A stretch of DNA of 64,000 nt from Escherichia virus TH57. Made by a program: the position numbers and the translations under genes. Below are positions 2,082 through 24,770 of the stretch, one piece after another. Location of the stretch: the sequence record MT446422.1. One strand, 5' to 3'. The stretch's first letter is position 1; every line of letters starts with the position of its first letter. The notes under the pieces were generated by a model. It was not told the origin of the DNA, did not search any database, and saw only the letters and a list, made by a program, of their open reading frames with translations.

Positions 2082-5000
2082 TTACATTTACCTGTGTAGG
2101 ATTAACCGGGTCTCTTGGATTACCAATATCATCTTTAAGACGTTGGTCAACTAATGCTCTCCAATTTGAGAATGTAACAGCCGACTGGTCAAACAGTGGA
2201 CTATATTTTCCACGACGTTGTGACGGTAACAACCCATAGAACATGGAGAAATCATTCTCGGCATCATAATCGGCTGGTAATGGGAATGGTTGACCAGCAT
2301 TAGGAGCGATGTTATATATTGCTTCACCTGTGATAGGGTTTTTCTCAATAGTACCATCAACACCAATCACTGCAACTCGGTCATTCCATTCTGACGGAAT
2401 ACCAGAAGACCATCTATAGTTACTTAATTTATTAATGATTGTCTCGGTGTGTTTAAGAGTCAAACCAACGTTAACAAACATTGTCAGCAACGTAATACCG
2501 ATGAATCCAAATCCAACCGGGTGAACGAATCGCAAAACATCATTACGATAACGAGAGGTTGGAAGGTTTGACTTAATTGTCATTACGTAATAAGAGCGGT
2601 TACGATTAATATAATCGATGTTGTTGCTCAACAACTCTTTACCACGAACACCTTGCACAATCATCCCCTTGAATGAGGTTCTTTCTGATTTAATTTCTTG
2701 CCCAACAATAAAACGTCCCAGGAGGTTATGAATAGTAATACGCCATCTTAATTTACCGTCTTTATAATCGCGCTCCATATAAGTCACATTACTGCGACCA
2801 GTTGCAGTATAAATGGTTTGGCCTACAATGTCTTCACTGATATTATCAGATTCAACTACGATATCATACTCGGTTCCGTTCTTGGATTCGATGTCAATTT
2901 CAACATCTTCATTATACAGCAATTTGAACAGGAATTTATAAGACGCTTCTGTGCCTTTTGTTGCCCAAAAATCAGACTGTCGGGCCTGGAAGAATCGAAC
3001 AGCTTCGTCACGTTTTTCCTTGGAGAGGTAAATGTTGCGTTTGTACATTTCACTCCAGAGGTATTCCCATGCATCTTCCTCGCGTGGATATTGGTTACGA
3101 ATAAGATTCAACAGGTTGTTATAGTATGTACCAGAACCATCACTGATGAACTGCAAATAATATTCACAGAATTTTTCAAATTTACTATCCTGCAAAAGAT
3201 AGCTATCCGGAACCATCTTCGTTAATAATGGCTGCAGGTCAGGGTCTTTTTCCTTATTCTCATTTTCTGGAGTCCATGGAATATCATGTTCCTGGTTTTG
3301 CAGTTCGGCCATAAGCATAATTTCTTTTGGCTTCCAGATGATACGCACTTCATCGCGCACGCGATAGTCAAACTCAAAATAGCCAATTAATTCCCCAGTA
3401 TTTTTATGAAGCATAATCCCGGAGGCATATTTTTTAAAGCCATTGAATTCGATGTTAGGTGCAGTAATCGTTACTTGACCTTTGTTCCAATATTCATGCA
3501 CGATACGTTCCGGGGAAGTTCCACTAAATGTATCGATGATATACTGGTAAAGAACATCGTTATAGACGACCATTGCTCGGTCTGAAGTCGTAATCCAGCA
3601 ACGAGTATCGTCACGTCTTGACCAGTTAAAGAACGGCTCTGCATAGTAAGTCATACGCCCAGGTTTGAACTCTTCAAAGCCAGAATCTTCGCCAGCTCTG
3701 AAACTCATCATCAGGTAATGCTTATCATGTATCCATTGTTCATCGTAAACGTATTTGACTGCTTCGTTAACTTCATCAGGATATTTAAGAGGAAGTTCAG
3801 TATCAGGCTCAACCGAATATTTGAAGTTGCTGGAGCTAAAGAATACTTCGATGCCATCAGTTGACATGCTTGCATAACCATGTTCGATTCGGCGGCGTTC
3901 TTCTTCTGTATTACCAAAAACTCTCGTCCATGTATCAGTAACAGGGTCTAATTTATAAACACCTTTATCCAGAGAGTCAACAACGTTTTCAGGTTTAGTT
4001 GGGTCTTGTCTTTCTTCTTTAACTTCACCTGTAATTAATGCAAACGTATGGCCTTGAACTGAATCCATTTTATAGCAAACTGCTTTAGGGTTCGCCGTAA
4101 TTGTACTGTAACCAGTTTCAAATAGTTTTTCACCAAAAGTCGGAGACCCTGGGGTTGTATCAATCGGCGCATCAGAGGTTTTTGCTTTATATACACGACC
4201 ACGAGCCGCAACATAAATGAACTCATCCGAAACCGTAATAGCTTCTGCTATTTGCGAAATATATGCCGGAAGTCTTGCATAGTTACCGAAGATTTCAATA
4301 TCAAATCCAAGGTTAATATCCGAACCGACTTTAGCAAATGTAATATCTTCAGAACTGAATCGAACATCATCTGCAGACCATCTTATATCGCTTGATTGGC
4401 GACCATAGAATATACGGTCATACCCCAAAACGTAAGTTGTGGTATCAGTCTGGTAATATACAGTTCTTGATACAGGGTTACCGACCCGCTCGTTAAAGAG
4501 TCTTATGTAATACCAGTTCTGGCCTTTGTCATTGGAGACTTTAACCATCGGCTGGAATCGTTCGAACAAATAAAGAACTCCACCGAGTTCAGCAAGCATC
4601 GTGCGGTTTTGGTCAACACAAACTGCTTGAATCGGTCCCTGGATTTCGTGATATTGGTCTTCTTGTAAAACATAGTTCGAGATTGAAGACAAATGAGAAT
4701 ATGCAGAGGTCCATGTAAAGTCTTCGGTCATCAATGAGGCCATAATAGCATCATTGTTAAAGTTGATATATCTCTGATTGTTATTGGTGAATTTTTCTTC
4801 AATGAATTTATTAGCCAAACTAAATTCGCGCATATGTTCAAAAGTATACGCGTTTGTTGCAAAGGTTTCAAATTCTTCGGTGTATTCCCAATCAGACCGT
4901 TCGAAGCCCATTGCCGCAACAGACACGCGCATCTGATAACTTGTTAACGGACGAATATATTCCTGCTCGAACCATTCATTGTCTGCGGTATAACCAAGGT

Positions 5001-7458: not shown

Positions 7459-7979
7459 TAATCCCTCGCGTATACGTATGAACGCAATTTATCTGCCCAT
7501 CTTGACCAGTTACCGACGATAGTTTTTGTGTAAACTTTTGTCATTGTCTTTCTTACTGGAGCAGGAGGTGGGTCGGTCTCATTACCTGTACGGCTATTAC
7601 TGCCACCAGAGTTCCCTGTGTCTCCACCAGAGCTCTCTTCTTGAAAGTCATAGGTTAGGGTTACCGTGTATGAAAAGACCTTCTGGAGGCTCGCTGGGGC
7701 CCTCCAGAGATACAATTGAGTACTCTTATCTGTAGGAAGGTCTTCCCATGAACCGGCAGTTTTGAATTCATCATTAAGCCGATATTTAAGCGCATCATCT
7801 GCAAATCCGAACACGGATTCATAAACACCGTAAAGATGATTACCCTCAACATTAACGCCAGGGGTGGCCTCATATTCAGTTATATTTATTTCGACTAATG
7901 TTTCGTTTGTTTCTAATTGAGCCGTAAACGTAACATCGATTGAGGCTCCTTCCATGGAGTCTCCTAGGTCAGTGCTCAT
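7458..7979 (-). CDS. conserved hypothetical protein at the T4 gene 5.1 position
   Basis: ORF track 7458..8039; first in-frame ATG outside gp5 is at 7979; an alternative ATG with AGGAG RBS at 7955; start uncertain. Confidence 0.5.
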
Positions 7980-7989
7980 TGGAAGTATA

Positions 7990-9732
7990 TTAGCCAATGT
8001 CAATCCTCGAACCATCAATAGTATATTGACCAGATGCAATTGAACTCATTGTTGACATTGTTTCGGACCAATTGCCAGCCACGGTCATATCAACGTTTCC
8101 ATTAACAGACCATTTGACATTACCATTTACCGTATAATCATGGTTACCTTCGACAAGAGTTTTTGCATCACCTTTAACAGTTATTTCAGCATTACCTTCG
8201 ACAAGAATACTTACATTACCTTTGACGATAATTGTACCATCACCTTCGATAGTTTTGGTTTCATTCCCTCTGATATGAATACTTTCGTTTCCATCGGTCT
8301 GGCGACGAACGTTAGCCATATTGTAATAGGTTTCATCACCGCCAACGTTGACTTTATTATTACCACCAACATAAGTACTCGAATCGCCCTGGGTCATATA
8401 ATAACCATCAGCCACAGTCTTCGAAGTTTTACGGCCATCTGGTGCAACTTCCTCATAGGACCCGGTTGGGTGAATCAGTCGATAACGTTCTTGCCCGGGT
8501 GTATTATCGAATTCCTGAATATGACCGCCTTCAGTTTGCATTGTCTGCACGTAAGGATATTCACCCTTGTAACTTGATTCTGGTTCTTTAAATAGAATCC
8601 TCGTATCTTCTGGAGTCCACGGGTCGGCCGGGTCAGAATTTGTAGGGGCTGCAAAGGTTTGAATCATCCTATAAGAACGGCCATTAAATTCTCTTTCTTT
8701 AGGGGCCATAATACCATATGATTCCATATTACCGGTAAGGATAATCATTGATACCCTTGATGCACGCCCTTTAGTTTGGTTAAACCATACTGAATTGCGA
8801 GCTTCCTCAAATGCCTTCTTATAATCGCCTATTAACATTGCACTAAGCATTCCACGGAATTTAGCCAATCCACCTAATCCCATTTGGAAAGCCATGTTTT
8901 CAAGAGCCATTTGTCTCGAACGGTTTTCTTTATTGTAAACCGGACCTACAACACTATGCTTGCCTATATCGTTTTGGACTTTTTTAAGGTCTTCCTGGAA
9001 TAACTTAGAAGCCTCGTCCATTGATATTGCACCAGGGTTACCTTTAACTTCACGGCCTATTTGATTAGATAATATTTTGTTTATCTGATTCATATCTCTA
9101 ATAGGTTGTGGTGCAATTAAGTGCCCTATACCTATAGTAGGATAACCCTCGGTGTCCCAATATACTTTCAAACGAAGACCTTCATCACGGTGAAGCATAT
9201 TTTCAATTGTGAAATTAGGGTTATCATCTGGTTTAACCTGACTCAAATCAAGACCATCCGGGTTAATACCCAAATCAAGGTTTGCATCTTGTATTACGTT
9301 CGAAGTGGCACCATAACCGACTTCGCCTCCACGGTTAAGCGCAGCAGCATCATTACCTACATAAAGCGGATATTGCCCGGTGGGGTCAGAGAAACCTTCG
9401 TTAGGATTTGCTTTTTGTCTTGAGGCTGAACCATATGTGCCAATGACAAGACCGTTGAGCTTCCACTTGTCTAAAAAGTGACCATACACTTGGGTTCCCG
9501 GGACCATACCAGTCATGGCAGTTTGAATTCCAGAAACCGATGCAGATGATGTTGGCATCAATACTGACATCCAAGGAAGGTCTTCAGTTCTGATACCTTT
9601 TACTGGCCCTTGTGCTTTCTCATATGGATGCATACCCCATACGCGAACACGTACACGACCTTGTTGAAGTGGGTCCATTCGGTCTTCAACAACCCCGACG
9701 AACCAACTTACATTATCTGACATATTAATCAT
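7990..9732 (-). CDS. 5: baseplate hub / cell-puncturing protein gp5 with lysozyme domain
   Basis: 580 aa; internal T4-lysozyme-like segment NMLHRDEGLRLKVYWDTEGYPTIGIGHL; C-terminal beta-helix-like VxGxxxVxV repeats; synteny 53-5. Confidence 0.9.
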   Translation of the reverse strand: MINMSDNVSWFVGVVEDRMDPLQQGRVRVRVWGMHPYEKAQGPVKGIRTEDLPWMSVLMPTSSASVSGIQTAMTGMVPGTQVYGHFLDKWKLNGLVIGTYGSASRQKANPNEGFSDPTGQYPLYVGNDAAALNRGGEVGYGATSNVIQDANLDLGINPDGLDLSQVKPDDNPNFTIENMLHRDEGLRLKVYWDTEGYPTIGIGHLIAPQPIRDMNQINKILSNQIGREVKGNPGAISMDEASKLFQEDLKKVQNDIGKHSVVGPVYNKENRSRQMALENMAFQMGLGGLAKFRGMLSAMLIGDYKKAFEEARNSVWFNQTKGRASRVSMIILTGNMESYGIMAPKEREFNGRSYRMIQTFAAPTNSDPADPWTPEDTRILFKEPESSYKGEYPYVQTMQTEGGHIQEFDNTPGQERYRLIHPTGSYEEVAPDGRKTSKTVADGYYMTQGDSSTYVGGNNKVNVGGDETYYNMANVRRQTDGNESIHIRGNETKTIEGDGTIIVKGNVSILVEGNAEITVKGDAKTLVEGNHDYTVNGNVKWSVNGNVDMTVAGNWSETMSTMSSIASGQYTIDGSRIDIG

Positions 9733-10331
9733 AATGCCTTCTCCATTTCACGGATAAGCGCGGAAATAAATGACTCAATGTCTTCCGGGTCAATTATTTT
9801 TATTTCGCGTTTGTATTCATTTTTACGGATAGCATCTTCATAGATATCCACTGCAGCTAATGGACCTTCATACTGCGGGTATAATTTGTTCTTGTCACCT
9901 TTATCGTACCAAGTGTATGGATTATCAGGATAAGAAACAAGGTTCCAGAACTTCTCGCCGTTTTCATTCACATGATAAAGGACCTGGTTACCACCAACAT
10001 TCGAATATTTCTGAATAGATGCCTGGTAAGATGATTCCTGAGAGCCGAGCCAACCATAATAAGGGTCATAGATATCATTGAGCATAAGGAGAACCCAATA
10101 TAGCTGCGTGTTCCCATAGAGCTGATATGCTAATTCTTCAGGTCTCGGAGCTCCTGCGATGTAATAGGTTTTTGGCGTATAATTAGCAGCGACCTTATCG
10201 AAATAAGCACGGTAGTTTCTGAAGATATCAGTCATTGGAATGCTTAAGACGTCTTCTTTCGTCAATGATGCTGAATTTTTTCTGATTGTTTTTGCATCAT
10301 AATCAATTGGGTTAAAAAATGAAAAAAGCAT
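9729..10331 (-). CDS. 53: baseplate wedge protein gp53
   Basis: ORF track 9729..10361 uses a TTG start; ATG at 10331 is preceded by GGAGG and gives MLFSFFNPIDYDAKT, matching the T4 gp53 N-terminus. Confidence 0.8.
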   Translation of the reverse strand: MLFSFFNPIDYDAKTIRKNSASLTKEDVLSIPMTDIFRNYRAYFDKVAANYTPKTYYIAGAPRPEELAYQLYGNTQLYWVLLMLNDIYDPYYGWLGSQESSYQASIQKYSNVGGNQVLYHVNENGEKFWNLVSYPDNPYTWYDKGDKNKLYPQYEGPLAAVDIYEDAIRKNEYKREIKIIDPEDIESFISALIREMEKAL

Positions 10332-19125: not shown

Positions 19126-19719
19126 ATGAATACTTTAAAGAAACTTGTTGAATTCATCCGCTCCAAACTGGGTACTGCAATGGCAAAAAACCTGTCTATT
19201 GAAGACCAATATACTCAAGCGGCGTCTACCCTAATTGACAAGATTACTGAGCTCCAGACTGCCCACGTTAAGTCTGTTAATGAAGAAAAACGCATCCGCG
19301 AGTTAGCGAATGAAAAAGACCAACTCGCCGCTTCAAAAGAGCGTGAAATCCGCAAACTGATTGCTGATGGTGCAGATGTCCAGGTCCATGCTAAACTGGG
19401 TCTCCTGTATCGCCGCACTGCTAAACAACTTCGTAAGAAGGCAGATGATTATGTTGAAATGCGTAATGAAATTAAATTGAAAGTTAAAGAGCTAGATGAC
19501 TCTCGTCAGGAACTAGCTGTTAAACTGGAATACATCCGCGAAACCCGTAAAGTATCTGCCCTAGGTATTGCGACTGCAGATGATGTTGTTGAAATTGCTG
19601 CATTGACTAAGATTGATATTGAAGACACTCTGATGCGTGTTGAAACCTTCAAAGGCCCACAGGTTGGTGTGGATACCACGTCCGCTGACATTGAAGAATA
19701 CATCAATTCACTTAAGTAA
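19126..19719 (+). CDS. coiled-coil protein (weak resemblance to PspA/IM30-type helical proteins)
   Basis: 197 aa, charged and helical-looking; hairpin-embedded promoter upstream. Confidence 0.5.
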
Positions 19720-19762
19720 GATAAAAGGGGGCTTTGCCCCCTAATTGGGAGAGGAGAAAATT

Positions 19763-20651: not shown

Positions 20652-20991
20652 TCTTGCCTCACATGTTTATCAATTGGCTGAATATGATATTGGTGGCAAT
20701 TTATTATTAGGGATTGTCACCGCCATGCTTGGTGGTTTGGTTGGTCTGGTAATGACCACGGTTATGGCTGCAATCGAGGGAGTCATGCCTATTGAGATGG
20801 GGTTCTTTATGATAATCGCTCCGGCTGTTGTGGCTTATTTTATCCCTGTTGTGTATGATATCTGTCACACAAACGCCGTGAATGCTCCTAGTCGGAAGAG
20901 ATATGCTTCAGCAATGGCTGAGTATAATAAGTTCCTAGACAAAACAAAACGTAATGACCTTGAAACCTTTATTAAGGAATGTAAATCATGA
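20638..20991 (+). CDS. membrane protein, FIxEC-family C-terminus
   Basis: ATG at 20638 after AGGAGG; hydrophobic helices; C-terminus ...ETFIKECKS. Confidence 0.55.
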   Translation: MERPSLASHVYQLAEYDIGGNLLLGIVTAMLGGLVGLVMTTVMAAIEGVMPIEMGFFMIIAPAVVAYFIPVVYDICHTNAVNAPSRKRYASAMAEYNKFLDKTKRNDLETFIKECKS

Positions 20992-21278
20992 ATAAAATTG
21001 AAATTGCTATCCCCAAGTATTATGATGAGAAATCTGCAGAAAAAGCTATCTATTCTCTTCTAAATAAGACCTCTGAAATTGAAAAACACTGTGAAGAAAT
21101 CGCAGATGAATATGGCATCGAATTCAGCACTGGCGATTACGGCACCGGCCGTACATATCACCCAGTCGGTTATGAATGTTCCGAATGGTTCGCTCACCAT
21201 ATTGAAAACAACGGCGGACAAGTTGAAAACGGCATTGTTACTGTTGGTGCCTGGGTTTCCTCTTCTGAGGTGTGCTAA
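20988..21278 (+). CDS. small protein, member 1 of GxW[VF]xSSxxC-tail paralog array
   Basis: C-terminus GAWVSSSEVC; ATGA overlap with upstream gene. Confidence 0.6.
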   Translation: MNKIEIAIPKYYDEKSAEKAIYSLLNKTSEIEKHCEEIADEYGIEFSTGDYGTGRTYHPVGYECSEWFAHHIENNGGQVENGIVTVGAWVSSSEVC

Positions 21279-21279
21279 T

Positions 21280-21561
21280 ATGATGAATGATTACCGTAAA
21301 AATAAAGAACTGGCTAACGCAGTAAATGATATCCATAAAGCTATTCGTCGTGCCGAGGAAATTGCAGACAAATATGAGACTCATTTTAATATATACCCTG
21401 CTCGCGGTATGGGCGGTGACTATTATTCTCCTGGCGCCTTGAAAGCCGACCTTGCTCATTGGGAAGAACATGGTCATCCTGAATGGGCTATTGTTAATAC
21501 TCATGACTATACAACTGACCTGGAAAATGGTGGTTGGGTGTCCTCTTCTGTTGAATGTTAA
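21280..21561 (+). CDS. small protein, member 2 of GxW[VF]xSSxxC-tail paralog array
   Basis: ORF track 21079..21561; ATG at 21280 just after member 1 stop; C-terminus GGWVSSSVEC; shares EEIADxY segment with member 1. Confidence 0.6.
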   Translation: MMNDYRKNKELANAVNDIHKAIRRAEEIADKYETHFNIYPARGMGGDYYSPGALKADLAHWEEHGHPEWAIVNTHDYTTDLENGGWVSSSVEC

Positions 21562-21570
21562 GGAATTATT

Positions 21571-21768
21571 ATGTCTCGTGAATTAGATTGTGCAATCCGT
21601 ACTGCCGCGGCAGCTATTGAAAACGTTATCCAGATTTGTAAAGAAGAACGTGAAGAAGCCGACATCTATATCGAAGGTGAAAACCATCTGGACCGTCATA
21701 TCACGATTTACAATGGCTGTATTACAATTACGGGTGGCTCCTGGGTGTCCTCCTCTTACGAATGCTAA
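21571..21768 (+). CDS. small protein, member 3 of GxW[VF]xSSxxC-tail paralog array
   Basis: C-terminus GSWVSSSYEC; TAAGGA RBS upstream. Confidence 0.6.
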   Translation: MSRELDCAIRTAAAAIENVIQICKEEREEADIYIEGENHLDRHITIYNGCITITGGSWVSSSYEC

Positions 21769-21777
21769 GGAAATAAA

Positions 21778-22005
21778 ATGACTGCTAAAACTGTTAAAGA
21801 AATTGAAGACCAAATCCGTGCACTAATCTGTGAAGGTGAACAACTGGCCGATAAAACTGGTGAATACTTTCATGTGTATGCTGACAGTCTTCAACGATAT
21901 ATTCCTGCGGGTTGTCCAGAATACGAAGAGTATGACTGGATTCGCGGTGATTATGGTATCCCAGATGGTAAAGGTTTCTGGTTTAACTCCTCTATGTCTT
22001 GCTAA
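21778..22005 (+). CDS. small protein, member 4 of GxW[VF]xSSxxC-tail paralog array
   Basis: C-terminus GFWFNSSMSC; TAAGGA RBS upstream. Confidence 0.55.
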   Translation: MTAKTVKEIEDQIRALICEGEQLADKTGEYFHVYADSLQRYIPAGCPEYEEYDWIRGDYGIPDGKGFWFNSSMSC

Positions 22006-22014
22006 GGTGATAAA

Positions 22015-22248
22015 ATGACTACTGCTGTTGAATATGCTGAATTAGAAAAAGCTGCCCTTGAATTGGCTGCGCTGTATAAGAAAGTAAAAGATATGGCGTC
22101 TGCTCAAGATTTCGGTGTTGAGCTTGATGATTATGACGGCGAAGTCCGTCTTGAAGACTGGTTGAACAGCTCTTGTTATGGTGAAGAAGCGGGCCGTACC
22201 TTCGTTGCTCGTGCCGATGGTAAAATCTGGTACCCGAGCAGCTGCTAA
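22015..22248 (+). CDS. small protein, member 5 (divergent) of the paralog array
   Basis: C-terminus KIWYPSSC plus internal WLNSSCYGEE; TAAGGTGA RBS upstream. Confidence 0.5.
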   Translation: MTTAVEYAELEKAALELAALYKKVKDMASAQDFGVELDDYDGEVRLEDWLNSSCYGEEAGRTFVARADGKIWYPSSC

Positions 22249-22278
22249 AATTATCACAAGGATGTGATAGGAGGACTT

Positions 22279-22608
22279 ATGCACAGAGATTCAGTATTTA
22301 AATATCTTTTAAAAACAGATAAAGAATTTTATATGGATGGACAAGCATTCTTGTTCGTTCGCGGTAAGCGTGAAATGTTTTATAAATGCGACCTCTCCAT
22401 GCATCATCACATGTACCATACCCATGGCGAGTCCATACTAGGGTTCTCTGGTGATGAGACTAAACATATAGCTATGTATTATGACCATTTCAAGCTCAAT
22501 GATTGTGGTGATAATGCTTTGGTCTGGAATCCATCTTGGTGCCGGTGGGATACAATAGACAACAATAAATTATTTTTAGAATATTGCAGAAGTAGTATAC
22601 AACTCTAG
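22279..22608 (+). CDS. hypothetical His/Cys-rich protein
   Basis: ORF track 22264 uses GTG; ATG at 22279 after AGGAGG. Confidence 0.5.
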   Translation: MHRDSVFKYLLKTDKEFYMDGQAFLFVRGKREMFYKCDLSMHHHMYHTHGESILGFSGDETKHIAMYYDHFKLNDCGDNALVWNPSWCRWDTIDNNKLFLEYCRSSIQL

Positions 22609-22672: not shown

Positions 22673-22873
22673 ATGTCTATCGCAAACGAATTAATCAAAG
22701 TTCTGAACGAAGCCAAAGCCAACCAACTGGAGGTTAATCTCCAGGAAGTTTCAGATGGCATTAAAGTAACCATCAGCGGCGATGGCGTTCCAGGCACTAC
22801 AGAGGTTTACGATTCTTTGGAAGAAGTGGTTTCTTGCATTAAAAGAGCCGTTTACTTATATGGTATAATTTGA
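22673..22873 (+). CDS. hypothetical protein
   Basis: 66 aa ORF with GGAG RBS. Confidence 0.45.
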   Translation: MSIANELIKVLNEAKANQLEVNLQEVSDGIKVTISGDGVPGTTEVYDSLEEVVSCIKRAVYLYGII

Positions 22874-22883
22874 GGAAAATATT

Positions 22884-23051
22884 ATGTATAATGTTCTTAT
22901 TGTTTTTGTCACTCACCCGCAAGGTGGAGTAAGACAGAATACTTCTCAAGTGGTTCAATTTTCTTCACTAGAGGCCGCCAATCTTGCTGCCTCACGAATT
23001 GAAGCGAAAAAATCGGCACTTGGAAAATATGAAGTAACTCGTCTTTACTAA
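22884..23051 (+). CDS. small hypothetical protein (55 aa, below ORF-track cutoff)
   Basis: ATG preceded by GAGGAAAATATT, the same RBS context used by neighbouring genes; fills a gap. Confidence 0.4.
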   Translation: MYNVLIVFVTHPQGGVRQNTSQVVQFSSLEAANLAASRIEAKKSALGKYEVTRLY

Positions 23052-23064
23052 TGAGGAAAATATT

Positions 23065-24024
23065 ATGATGTTAGTTATTGGCTCTCGCGCATTGCATAAC
23101 GCCGGTCTGATTGAAAGTAAGAAAATTGAAAACTCTGATTGGGACTTTATAGCAGACCAAGGTTCCTGGAACAACTTTAAAACCCAGATGATGGGGCAGC
23201 ACGTGCATGTGGATAACCCAGATGTTCAAGCTTTTAAATGTATGCACAATGGCAAAGAAACCTATTTTGAAGCATACATCGTCCGGGCACTGACAAGTGT
23301 TCGTGAACTGACTGATGAGTTACAAGAGGAAGATTTTACCTCTAGTTATCGTCTGCTCAAATATGCGAAGGCGAATATTCAGAAAGACCGTCTATCTGGT
23401 TTTTACTGGGCGACTCCTGATATTTGTCTGGCAATTAAACTGTCTCATCGTTACCTGAAGAACAATCCATTCTTCCTGAAGACCATGAGTCATATTAATT
23501 ACCTTCGCAATAAGGGTGTTGTTCTTAATGATGAACTGCAGAAAATTATGCAACAACGCCAGGCAGAAACACTGTCATATAGTCACCCTAAACTAGATGT
23601 GGGCAAGAAAACTTTCTTTAATGATACAATCTATACCCTTGACCATGACTCCATCCACGAGGCTGTGGCGCTTGCTGATAAGCCTGCATATAAGTTCTAT
23701 ATGAAGGATGATTCAGAAGTCATGACCTCGCGTGAAAAATTTGAAGCACTCCCTGAGATTATTAAACTGGCTGGGGTTTATGAAGAAGCATGTGTACTTG
23801 CTCTGGAGCGTTCGCAGGTTCCCAATGAGTTCAATATCTCTCCATCCGTGAGCTTCCATATTGCTCTGGAAAAAGTCTGCACCTCCATTACTTCTGGATG
23901 GTTCCGCGAGTATGCCTGGGAACATTACCAGGAAGTGGTTAATATGTACAACACCCTGGGTCACGAAGACTATGTTAAACGTTTCAAAGCTAACCAGCAT
24001 TTAATTCGCCCTTTCGAAAAATAA
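23065..24024 (+). CDS. hypothetical protein (319 aa)
   Basis: Long ORF with GAGGAAAATATT RBS context; no domain recognised. Confidence 0.6.
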   Translation: MMLVIGSRALHNAGLIESKKIENSDWDFIADQGSWNNFKTQMMGQHVHVDNPDVQAFKCMHNGKETYFEAYIVRALTSVRELTDELQEEDFTSSYRLLKYAKANIQKDRLSGFYWATPDICLAIKLSHRYLKNNPFFLKTMSHINYLRNKGVVLNDELQKIMQQRQAETLSYSHPKLDVGKKTFFNDTIYTLDHDSIHEAVALADKPAYKFYMKDDSEVMTSREKFEALPEIIKLAGVYEEACVLALERSQVPNEFNISPSVSFHIALEKVCTSITSGWFREYAWEHYQEVVNMYNTLGHEDYVKRFKANQHLIRPFEK

Positions 24025-24083: not shown

Positions 24084-24770
24084 ATGAACGGTCCAAAAAC
24101 TTTTAATTCTCAAGCTCATGCAGTAGGCAGTTTCGCTGGTAAAATTTCTAATGATAAAATCAAAAACGAAACTATGTTCTTCAACAGCTCATTGGCTTTC
24201 GCTTTTGACAATGGCGGTCCTATTACTCGTAGCTTTATCATGAGTCTGCCGGATGATTGGAACACTGACCAGGTTGTATTTGATTCTCGGGTTCATATGC
24301 TGATGCCTGGTTGGTATCCCGCTATCCCAGGTTATCACCATGATGATGTACCACGCCCGGATATTCCGGTTGGTCAACACTTTATTACTGCAGGGCAACC
24401 TGATTATGATAATCCTCGTTACCATTCTGAACATATTCTTGGTCTTGTTAACGCTGATGTGTGTCCTACTTATTTTGCAACCGGAACTGCAGAATTCAGT
24501 CAGATTCCTGAAGGCGAACTTATCTATCGCCAGTGGCATAAAGAAGTTCTGGAAAAAATTGAGTCCAATGAATTAACCAAGTGGGATGCTCCTGACCGCA
24601 CGTTGCTCCAGTTTGATTGGCAGACATGGCATACAGGTTCTCGTGCAGTAAGTAACGGTTGGCGCTGGTTTGGTCGTGTGTCTCGTAATACCGACCGTGT
24701 TAAAAAGATTACAAATGAAATCCGCGTTAATGCTCAAGTATATCTGGAATTCCCTATGGAGGGCTGGTAA
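24084..24770 (+). CDS. hypothetical protein (228 aa)
   Basis: Promoter with hairpin-embedded -10 and GAGGAAAATATT RBS upstream; no domain recognised. Confidence 0.6.
   Translation: MNGPKTFNSQAHAVGSFAGKISNDKIKNETMFFNSSLAFAFDNGGPITRSFIMSLPDDWNTDQVVFDSRVHMLMPGWYPAIPGYHHDDVPRPDIPVGQHFITAGQPDYDNPRYHSEHILGLVNADVCPTYFATGTAEFSQIPEGELIYRQWHKEVLEKIESNELTKWDAPDRTLLQFDWQTWHTGSRAVSNGWRWFGRVSRNTDRVKKITNEIRVNAQVYLEFPMEGW

Follow-up and report, generated by a model that had tools for sequence, protein, structure and literature searches.

A tandem array of small paralogous phage genes shows near-obligate linkage to a downstream DUF7277+DUF7275 gene

Introduction

In multi-precursor clusters of ribosomally synthesized and posttranslationally modified peptides (RiPPs), paralogous small genes are served by one enzyme, as the prochlorosin ProcA peptides are by ProcM, and in lanthipeptides Ser and Cys residues are joined into thioether rings. 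In the CitD/CitX and MdcC/MdcG pairs, a carrier protein is matched with a holo-synthase of nucleotidyltransferase (NTase) fold, and in MntA-HepT the small partner is AMPylated by a minimal NTase. Small size and acidity are common among phage inhibitors and DNA mimics, and the internal protein (IP) loci are variable arrays of small genes, the T4 IP proteins being injected to counter host defenses. Here we describe a tandem array of five small genes at positions 20988 to 22248 (+ strand) of a 64,000-nucleotide (nt) stretch of Escherichia virus TH57 (MT446422.1), referred to below as the window. The array is the multi-copy half of a widespread, phage-specific two-family module, whose single-copy half, a DUF7277+DUF7275 protein, is encoded 0.8 kb downstream.

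The array is similar to RiPP clusters in having several paralogous small genes beside one enzyme gene and a conserved Ser/Ser/Cys motif. Unlike a free core peptide that follows a leader, however, the conserved part of the array proteins is C-terminal and lies in a domain modeled as folded (predicted local distance difference test [pLDDT], 94); the unstructured core peptide typical of RiPPs is not seen, since the tail is modeled inside this compact domain, and the array sits in a lytic phage with no export or protease genes present. No Pfam domain of a RiPP-modifying enzyme (LanB/C, LanM, LanKC/L, YcaO, or radical SAM) was detected in the partner protein or in ten neighboring proteins. As in CitD/CitX, MdcC/MdcG, and MntA-HepT, a small acidic protein with an invariant hydroxyl residue is encoded beside a GS...DxD...E protein, but no sequence or profile similarity to these systems was found, and the small partner here is multi-copy and diversified. 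The array proteins share size, acidity, a variable early/middle location, and restriction to phages with Ocr, Arn, Acb2/Vs.4, Tad1, Tad2, and the anti-CRISPRs, yet they show no sequence or fold similarity to any characterized member of this group. The T4 IP loci are likewise variable, tandem sets of small genes, and in T-even-type phages they occupy the same broad part of the genome; IP proteins have a common N-terminal capsid-targeting sequence, whereas the N termini of the array proteins differ and the C terminus is common. The resemblance to RiPP arrays, CitD/CitX-type pairs, and MntA-HepT is an analogy of arrangement only. Our comparisons revealed no homology or fold similarity to anti-defense proteins, DNA mimics, toxin-antitoxin components, RiPP enzymes, or carrier-protein systems, and no relationship of the small family to any known family or fold.

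By hidden Markov model (HMM) score, the window proteins are members of phrog_899, phrog_4882, and phrog_2141/DUF7277+DUF7275. These PHROG and Pfam entries are catalogue records without function, structure, or literature, and as far as visible they do not record a link between the two families; literature searches with the PHROG, Pfam, and RB69 open reading frame (ORF) identifiers and with the annotation of Acinetobacter phage Apostate found no relevant paper. What is new here is the near-obligate linkage of the small family to the DUF7277+DUF7275 gene.

Results and discussion

Gene linkage of the two families is near obligate and directional. The DUF7277+DUF7275 gene (positions 23065 to 24024, + strand) starts 816 nt past the last gene of the array, on the same strand, and encodes a 319-amino-acid (aa) protein with an N-terminal DUF7277 (PF23942; E value, 2.7e-27) and a C-terminal DUF7275 (PF23940; E value, 2.7e-76) that falls into phrog_2141. 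The pair was present in all six of the distant phages picked by hand, with the partner gene after the small genes in Shigella phage SP18, RB69 (ORF134c), Aeromonas phage 44RR2.8t (ORF062c), Pseudomonas phage phiPsa381 (gp078), the Erwinia jumbo phage Hallingskeid, and Acinetobacter phage Acj9. Among 80 IMG/VR loci anchored on the 319-aa protein, matches to the small family (E ≤0.01) were found in 71, with one to six copies each; all 195 matches were on the same strand as the enzyme gene, 192 of them upstream, and the gap to the enzyme gene had a median of 356 bp (range, 15 to 1625). The reverse test used 62 loci anchored on the YGMGG-type small protein (from an alignment of the YGMGG subfamily) and detected the enzyme gene on the same strand in 59, downstream in 57 of these; two of the three exceptions are contigs that end within 100 nt of the small genes, which leaves the enzyme gene in 59 of 60 evaluable loci. 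When the + strand ORFs of 73 dereplicated lineages (enzyme, <80% identity) were clustered all against all, the small family was the sole broadly common neighbor (69/73), the next family being present in 11/73. The genomic contexts of the pair differ by phage (the e.x region, or beside nrdD, gene 41, ribonucleotide reductase, or polynucleotide kinase/RNA ligase), which argues that it travels as a unit. Because of these linkage data, a functional partnership of the small proteins with the DUF7277+DUF7275 protein is the best-supported explanation of the array and a probable one.

Both families are essentially restricted to phages. Of 50,697 phage records, 731 contain the enzyme gene, and among 185,579 prokaryotic species (one genome each) it was present in only six contigs, all from metagenome bins. 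The first-pass annotation of the window had not recognized the five genes as a named T4 family, and rightly so: neither the small family nor the partner gene is present in the 140 kb of T4 that were scanned (positions 1 to 90,000 and 119,000 to 168,903), which cover all early and middle regions, and at the syntenic spot of T4 e.3 abuts e.2 where relatives hold the block. Since T4 lacks the pair, classical genetics would have missed the module.

A different explanation is that the five proteins independently inhibit or bind host proteins or nucleic acid enzymes in the service of host takeover or anti-defense, with the tail as a structural core and the enzyme gene as a hitchhiker. The proteins are indeed small and acidic (isoelectric point [pI], 4.3 to 5.2), their genes lie between e.4 and e.2, where the early/middle region is variable, their copy number varies from one to six among phages, the tail lies within the fold in the model described below, and NAD salvage-type genes are near the module in Acinetobacter phage Acj9 and Aeromonas phage 44RR2.8t. 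Hitchhiking is, however, hard to square with linkage to the enzyme in 69 of 73 divergent lineages in which all other neighbors change. PADLOC and Pfam scans of the proteins gave no match, sequence and fold comparison found no match to any anti-defense or defense family, and an invariant terminal Cys together with a Ser-Ser pair would be unusual for a purely structural element. We therefore rate this explanation as distinctly unlikely; the earlier suggestion that the array is host-takeover or anti-defense cargo was a guess from its location alone.

The five genes are real and paralogous. Five consecutive short ORFs are present on the + strand, with C-terminal tails exactly as listed in the first-pass annotation, and their lengths of 65 to 96 aa slightly correct its range of 65 to 95 aa. 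Paralog 1 (positions 20988 to 21278; 96 aa; pI 4.6; tail GAWVSSSEVC) is of the canonical KIEIxIP...IADxYG...YGxGRTYxP type and matches phrog_899 (E, 1.3e-21) and the family HMM (82 bits). Paralog 2 (positions 21280 to 21561; 93 aa; pI 5.2; tail GGWVSSSVEC), the ortholog of RB69ORF137c and of the YPARGMGGDYYSPG type, matches phrog_899 (E, 6e-20) and has tblastn matches in 281 phage records; as had been noticed, an EEIADxY segment is common to paralogs 1 and 2. Paralog 4 (positions 21778 to 22005; 75 aa; pI 4.4; tail GFWFNSSMSC) matches phrog_899 with an E value of 3.5e-15 and paralog 2 in BLASTP with 1e-4 over 86 aa. Full-length paralogy is thus significant for these three members (BLASTP, 6e-6 over 91 aa and 1e-4 over 86 aa; phrog_899, E from 1e-15 to 1e-21).

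The other two members are divergent and are recognized chiefly by their tail, N-terminal helix, and position. Paralog 3 (positions 21571 to 21768; 65 aa; pI 4.5; tail GSWVSSSYEC), a short protein of the RB69ORF136c type without the YGxGxTYYP hairpin, belongs to phrog_4882 (E, 3e-36), its match to phrog_899 being just 0.055. Paralog 5 (positions 22015 to 22248; 77 aa; pI 4.3) matches phrog_899 with an E value of 2e-9 and carries the motif twice, as DWLNSSC in the internal copy DWLNSSCYGEE and as IWYPSSC in its short-class tail KIWYPSSC; the internal DW..S.CYGEE motif, also present in some canonical members, ties it to them. When their own subfamilies were left out of the HMM, paralogs 3 and 5 scored 11.4 and 8.5 bits, respectively, the former tail driven, and with the tail removed nothing was left. 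No other six-frame ORF of at least 30 aa in the window ends in W..SS.{0,3}C, and the family HMM found no further members there. The genes are therefore genuine paralogs, arranged in tandem and diversified, in which a W..SS..C motif is fixed at the C terminus.

All five genes evolve under purifying selection. Compared with orthologs from five related phages, the ratio of nonsynonymous to synonymous substitution rates (dN/dS) was 0.01 to 0.41, similar to that of the 319-aa gene, with dS reaching 1.4; by gene it was 0.12 to 0.14 (paralog 1), 0.08 to 0.41 (paralog 2), 0.13 to 0.33 (paralog 3), 0 to 0.17 in an ungapped alignment (paralog 4), and 0.01 to 0.06 (paralog 5, the most conserved of the five). 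Each ORF also has a Shine-Dalgarno sequence 6 to 8 nt ahead of its ATG. Of the TAAGGA-type ribosome-binding sites reported after each gene, those at junctions 2/3, 3/4, and 4/5 are as claimed (TAAGGA or TAAGGT, 6 to 7 nt, then ATG), and the one at junction 1/2 is not: gene 2 starts (ATGATG) one base past the gene 1 TAA, with its ribosome-binding site, GAGG, within the gene 1 tail. After gene 5, 31 nt including GGAGG lead to the next ATG at position 22280. The low dN/dS and the Shine-Dalgarno sequences together indicate translated, functional genes rather than frameshifted relics.

Short, tandem genes with a repeated stop/ribosome-binding-site junction could in principle be decaying duplicates, or the tail could be an artifact of a duplicated DNA junction, the copies not being separately functional. 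The tail/junction DNA copies are only 66 to 76% identical and differ synonymously (TCC/TCT, TGC/TGT, GTT/GTG), which indicates that conservation acts on the protein and not on a repeated DNA junction, and the junction artifact is rejected on this ground. With dN/dS far under 1 in all five genes, five intact frames equipped with ribosome-binding sites, and orthologs of each paralog type in other phage genera, decay is so improbable that we reject it as well. A 160-aa ORF with a TTG start (positions 21079 to 21561) overlaps most of paralog 1, the frame of paralog 2 being open from 21064; it is a mechanical artifact, and the true start of paralog 2 is the ATG at 21280 with the GAGG ribosome-binding site, as annotated in SP18.

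The paralog types are old. All five are found, differently ordered, in a Klebsiella phage locus, types 1, 2, and 3 occur in RB69-type phages, and many other T4-like genera retain a pair of types 1 and 5. The occurrence of orthologs across genera, once in another order, indicates ancient types, so that of the proposed tandem diversification in a hyperplastic early region, the diversified tandem paralogs stand, and the types are common to several phage genera and not a local expansion.

PHROGs places four of the proteins (paralogs 1, 2, 4, and 5) in phrog_899 and paralog 3 in phrog_4882, both of unknown function, and these were the only family matches; Pfam, NCBIfam, and PADLOC scans gave no significant match, and a PDB profile search with the small family returned designed helical bundles and AcrIIC4 only, at E ≥1 and on the N-terminal helix. 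When 1.84 billion representative proteins were searched exhaustively with the HMM, 88 clusters at 50% identity were obtained, all of 65 to 138 aa, none fused to another domain, and with the match reaching the C terminus. By tblastn, the family is present in T4-like phages of Escherichia, Shigella, Klebsiella, Citrobacter, Enterobacter, Serratia, Edwardsiella, Aeromonas, and Acinetobacter, in ~100-kb Pseudomonas syringae phages, in ~150-kb E. coli phages, and in jumbo phages of Erwinia, Xanthomonas, and Ralstonia. In the records, its members are always annotated as hypothetical or plainly misnamed. Spurious names given to the family or its partner in some GenBank records include "tail completion protein," "CAZy families GH13 protein," "prohead assembly scaffold protein," and "chromosome partition protein." In phiPsa381, gp083 has 147 aa and ends in WDSSSMYC.

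In family members, a long helix at the N terminus closes with AExIADxxG and is followed by a hairpin x-F-x-F...YG(M/S)G(G/R)TYYP, a Trp- and Asp/Glu-rich acidic linker, and the tail G-x-W-x-S-S-S-x-x-C. The tail motif, placed no more than one residue from the C terminus, is present in 86 of the 88 representatives, 80 of which end exactly at the Cys, and it falls into two classes, W-x-S-S-S-x-x-C and W-x-x-S-S-C. The only invariant side chains are the Trp, two Ser, and the terminal Cys (W89, S92, S93, and C96), the Cys usually being the sole cysteine, and the median pI of the family is 4.4. An AlphaFold2 model of paralog 1 built from a 106-sequence alignment (pLDDT, 94; predicted template-modeling score, 0.80) predicts a helix at residues 14 to 42, a beta-hairpin, a short helix, and three further strands, with the tail forming the last strand and a terminal helical turn in the compact domain (pLDDT, 85 for the last block). 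A first model of paralog 2 from a shallow alignment reached a pLDDT of 63, and a Foldseek search with this poor model was uninformative. We conclude that the array consists of ancient paralogs, each maintained in its own right, from a phage-specific family of acidic alpha/beta proteins that are small (65 to 140 aa) and folded.

The distribution and the position of the conserved part also bear on whether the five are internal proteins packaged in the head, like the T4 IP proteins. In relatives, Ip10 and the RB69 "internal head protein" genes are a few kilobases downstream. The N termini (MNKIEIAIPK, MMNDYRKNKE, MSRELDCAIR, MTAKTVKEIE, and MTTAVEYAEL) are nevertheless without a common motif or a capsid-targeting sequence and are unrelated to the T4 capsid-targeting consensus, MKTYQEFIAE. 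The conserved part is the C terminus rather than the N terminus, and the family is also found in non-T4-like ~100-kb phages and jumbo phages. Packaging in the head is very improbable on this evidence, and we reject it.

The partner family comprises more than 2000 clusters at 90% identity with no informative name. In an alignment of members 43 to 75% identical to the window protein, ~60 positions are invariant, among them G6-S7, D25-x-D27, and E69 in the N-terminal domain and K125, H128, R129, H174, D193-H194-D195, H198, E240-E241, E248-R249, and KVCTSITSGWFRE in the C-terminal domain. The N-terminal pattern resembles the signature of pol-beta-type NTases and may reflect such an activity: G6 S7, D25 x D27, and E69 fit the motif order hG[GS], [DE]h[DE]h, third carboxylate, with no profile match alongside. 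One GenBank record names a homolog "putative nucleotidyltransferase," and shorter homologs (~250 aa) in Streptomyces and Gordonia phages keep the GS...DxD pattern.

We propose that the module is transcribed as one early/middle unit, that the common C-terminal end of the small proteins would be a docking or acceptor site through which they act together with the enzyme-like protein, and that, through the diverged helices and acidic linkers, targets or roles in the infected cell may differ from paralog to paralog. The tail is favored as the site because its Trp, two Ser, and terminal Cys are the only invariant side chains and because the layout of many small genes and one enzyme gene mirrors that of one enzyme servicing several related small proteins. 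The physical or enzymatic interaction, the tail as its site, the NTase nature of the partner, and any role in host takeover are inferred. Taken as a whole, with the module as one unit, the tail as docking or acceptor site, and the paralogs directed at different targets, the proposal is one toward which we lean slightly.

Several observations weigh against it. Nine of the 80 enzyme loci had no HMM match to the small family, although in six of these nine the tail motif still terminates an ORF, and one locus is truncated. Enzyme homologs of actinophages (Streptomyces and Gordonia) have no detectable small-family neighbor, which indicates that the enzyme can exist without these partners. Conserved adjacency in phages can reflect block inheritance instead of common function, and the folding of the tail into the domain, as modeled, could make its conservation largely structural. 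For the partner, lenient Pfam and NCBIfam scans of diverse members returned only the two DUFs, phmmer and profile searches of the PDB gave no match, and no match was obtained by hhalign against T4 nrdC.11, an NTase of the RlaP type.

A more specific version of the partnership holds that the tail is a substrate, its C-terminal Ser/Cys motif being covalently modified by the DUF7277+DUF7275 enzyme. A Ser could be nucleotidylylated or phosphorylated, a prosthetic group could be attached, or Ser could be activated and eliminated and Cys then added to give a thioether ring; the array would then supply alternative substrates to a single enzyme, much as the precursors do in multi-precursor RiPP clusters and the carrier proteins in carrier-protein/holo-synthase pairs. 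In its favor are a gene layout in which a single enzyme gene always comes after multiple small ones, the nucleophilic character of the invariant residues with a Cys that is mostly the sole cysteine, the Ser-x-x-Cys spacing, which is compatible with a thioether ring as in lanthipeptides, and the GS...DxD...E pattern and many invariant His, Asp, and Glu residues of the enzyme. It is countered by the absence of detected homology to LanB/LanM/LanKC, YcaO, radical SAM, CitX/MdcG, or Fic enzymes, by a tail that is predicted to be folded rather than a free peptide, by the W-x-x-S-S-C class, which leaves little room for a ring, and by the actinophage enzymes that occur without these proteins. We hold this version to be possible and rather doubtful.

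If it were true, modification (nucleotidylylation, a prosthetic group, or a thioether ring) would turn each paralog into an active effector against a different host target, in a RiPP-like or carrier-protein-like system that operates at the protein level for host takeover or counter-defense and uses small proteins of a new fold. That large lytic phages of Gram-negative bacteria hold such a protein modification system, with an NTase-like enzyme covalently modifying the Ser/Cys ends of small proteins, is in our judgment unlikely. The pair is present in hundreds of sequenced phages, including T4-like phages of the therapeutic type (E. coli, Klebsiella, Acinetobacter, and Aeromonas), ~100-kb Pseudomonas phages, and jumbo phages, and the pairing could be a concrete lead to new enzymology or a new mode of host manipulation. 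RB69 and the Dhakavirus/Gaprivervirus phages are tractable systems for the module. Even if its function proves mundane, a context has been assigned to two families known as DUFs or PHROGs of unknown function, and spurious public annotations have been corrected.

The genes from e.6 to beyond the enzyme gene are all co-oriented, with gaps of 1 to 60 nt, and no convincing intrinsic terminator was found between the array and the enzyme gene; in a scan for sigma-70 promoters and terminators, counts were not above the shuffled expectation. A candidate middle promoter of the MotA box type, TGCTTCA-N12-TATAAT (positions 20904 to 20928, + strand), lies inside the preceding gene, ~60 nt upstream of the first array gene. 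The MotA box pattern had 10 matches in the window compared with 3.2 expected, 8 of the 10 on the + strand. The candidate is kept 84 nt before the first ATG in seven of nine Dhakavirus/Gaprivervirus relatives, with substitutions that preserve the motif. The conserved position of this consensus match suggests that the array is transcribed in the middle mode.

Over 2.2 kb, the surroundings of the array are 90 to 97% identical to T4-like Gaprivervirus/Dhakavirus phages (SP18 and Escherichia phages P896 and VR25). In the SP18 annotation, the tRNA cluster, e.6, and e.4 precede this region, and e.2, nudE, and e follow it; its genes are on a single strand, and every one is annotated as hypothetical. 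The array and the enzyme gene are separated in the window by three small ORFs (positions 22280 to 22608, 22673 to 22873, and 22884 to 23051, + strand) that belong to phrog_9796, phrog_14244, and phrog_20278, all of unknown function. None matched the family HMM, so they are not members of the family, and the intervening genes differ among lineages. The phrog_9796 ORF contains VWNPSWC ~24 aa before its end, which recalls W-x-P-S-S-C; with the family HMM negative, it could be due to chance or mark a very divergent, extended relative. In SP18 and P896, an extra 75-aa gene (SP18 gp136; locus positions 7751 to 7978) follows directly after paralog 5. It is absent from the window at ~22248 to 22280, corresponding to a 229-bp indel that splits the megablast match into two pieces. 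As a sixth member of the family gp136 was rejected, since it has no match to the family HMM.

Directly after the enzyme gene, a 228-aa ORF (positions 24084 to 24770) of phrog_1843 and the RB69ORF132c type is found in the window, SP18, and RB69; outside this clade it is not kept with the module. In the window, the Nudix gene nudE follows the enzyme gene at a distance of ~1.5 kb. Genes of the NAD salvage/reconstitution type, for proteins resembling ribose-phosphate pyrophosphokinase and nicotinamide phosphoribosyltransferase, occur within a few kilobases of the module in Acinetobacter phage Acj9 (locus positions 7766 to 10171) and Aeromonas phage 44RR2.8t (1 to 1169). The module may thus have a nucleotide- or NAD-related neighborhood, an association that is not general (at most 11 of 73 lineages). 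RNA repair genes (RNA ligase or polynucleotide kinase) or tRNA clusters adjoin the DUF7275 gene in three unrelated lineages, represented by Erwinia phage Hallingskeid (locus positions 2203 to 4989), Streptomyces phage Blueeyedbeauty (1372 to 2031), and Gordonia phage Bachita (5346 to 7483), and in the window a tRNA cluster is ~4 kb upstream; these neighbors hint, anecdotally, that the enzyme may have a role related to RNA. In Acinetobacter phage Apostate (locus positions 4353 to 4667), a gene for a 104-aa "putative ADP-ribosyl transferase" is ~240 nt downstream of the DUF7275 homolog. Upstream of the array, a perfect GC-rich hairpin, AGGGGGC...GCCCCCT (positions 19724 to 19742), lies immediately 3' of the e.6-like gene (19126 to 19719); it scored as terminator-like on the - strand and may be an RNA stability or terminator element between e.6 and the next gene.

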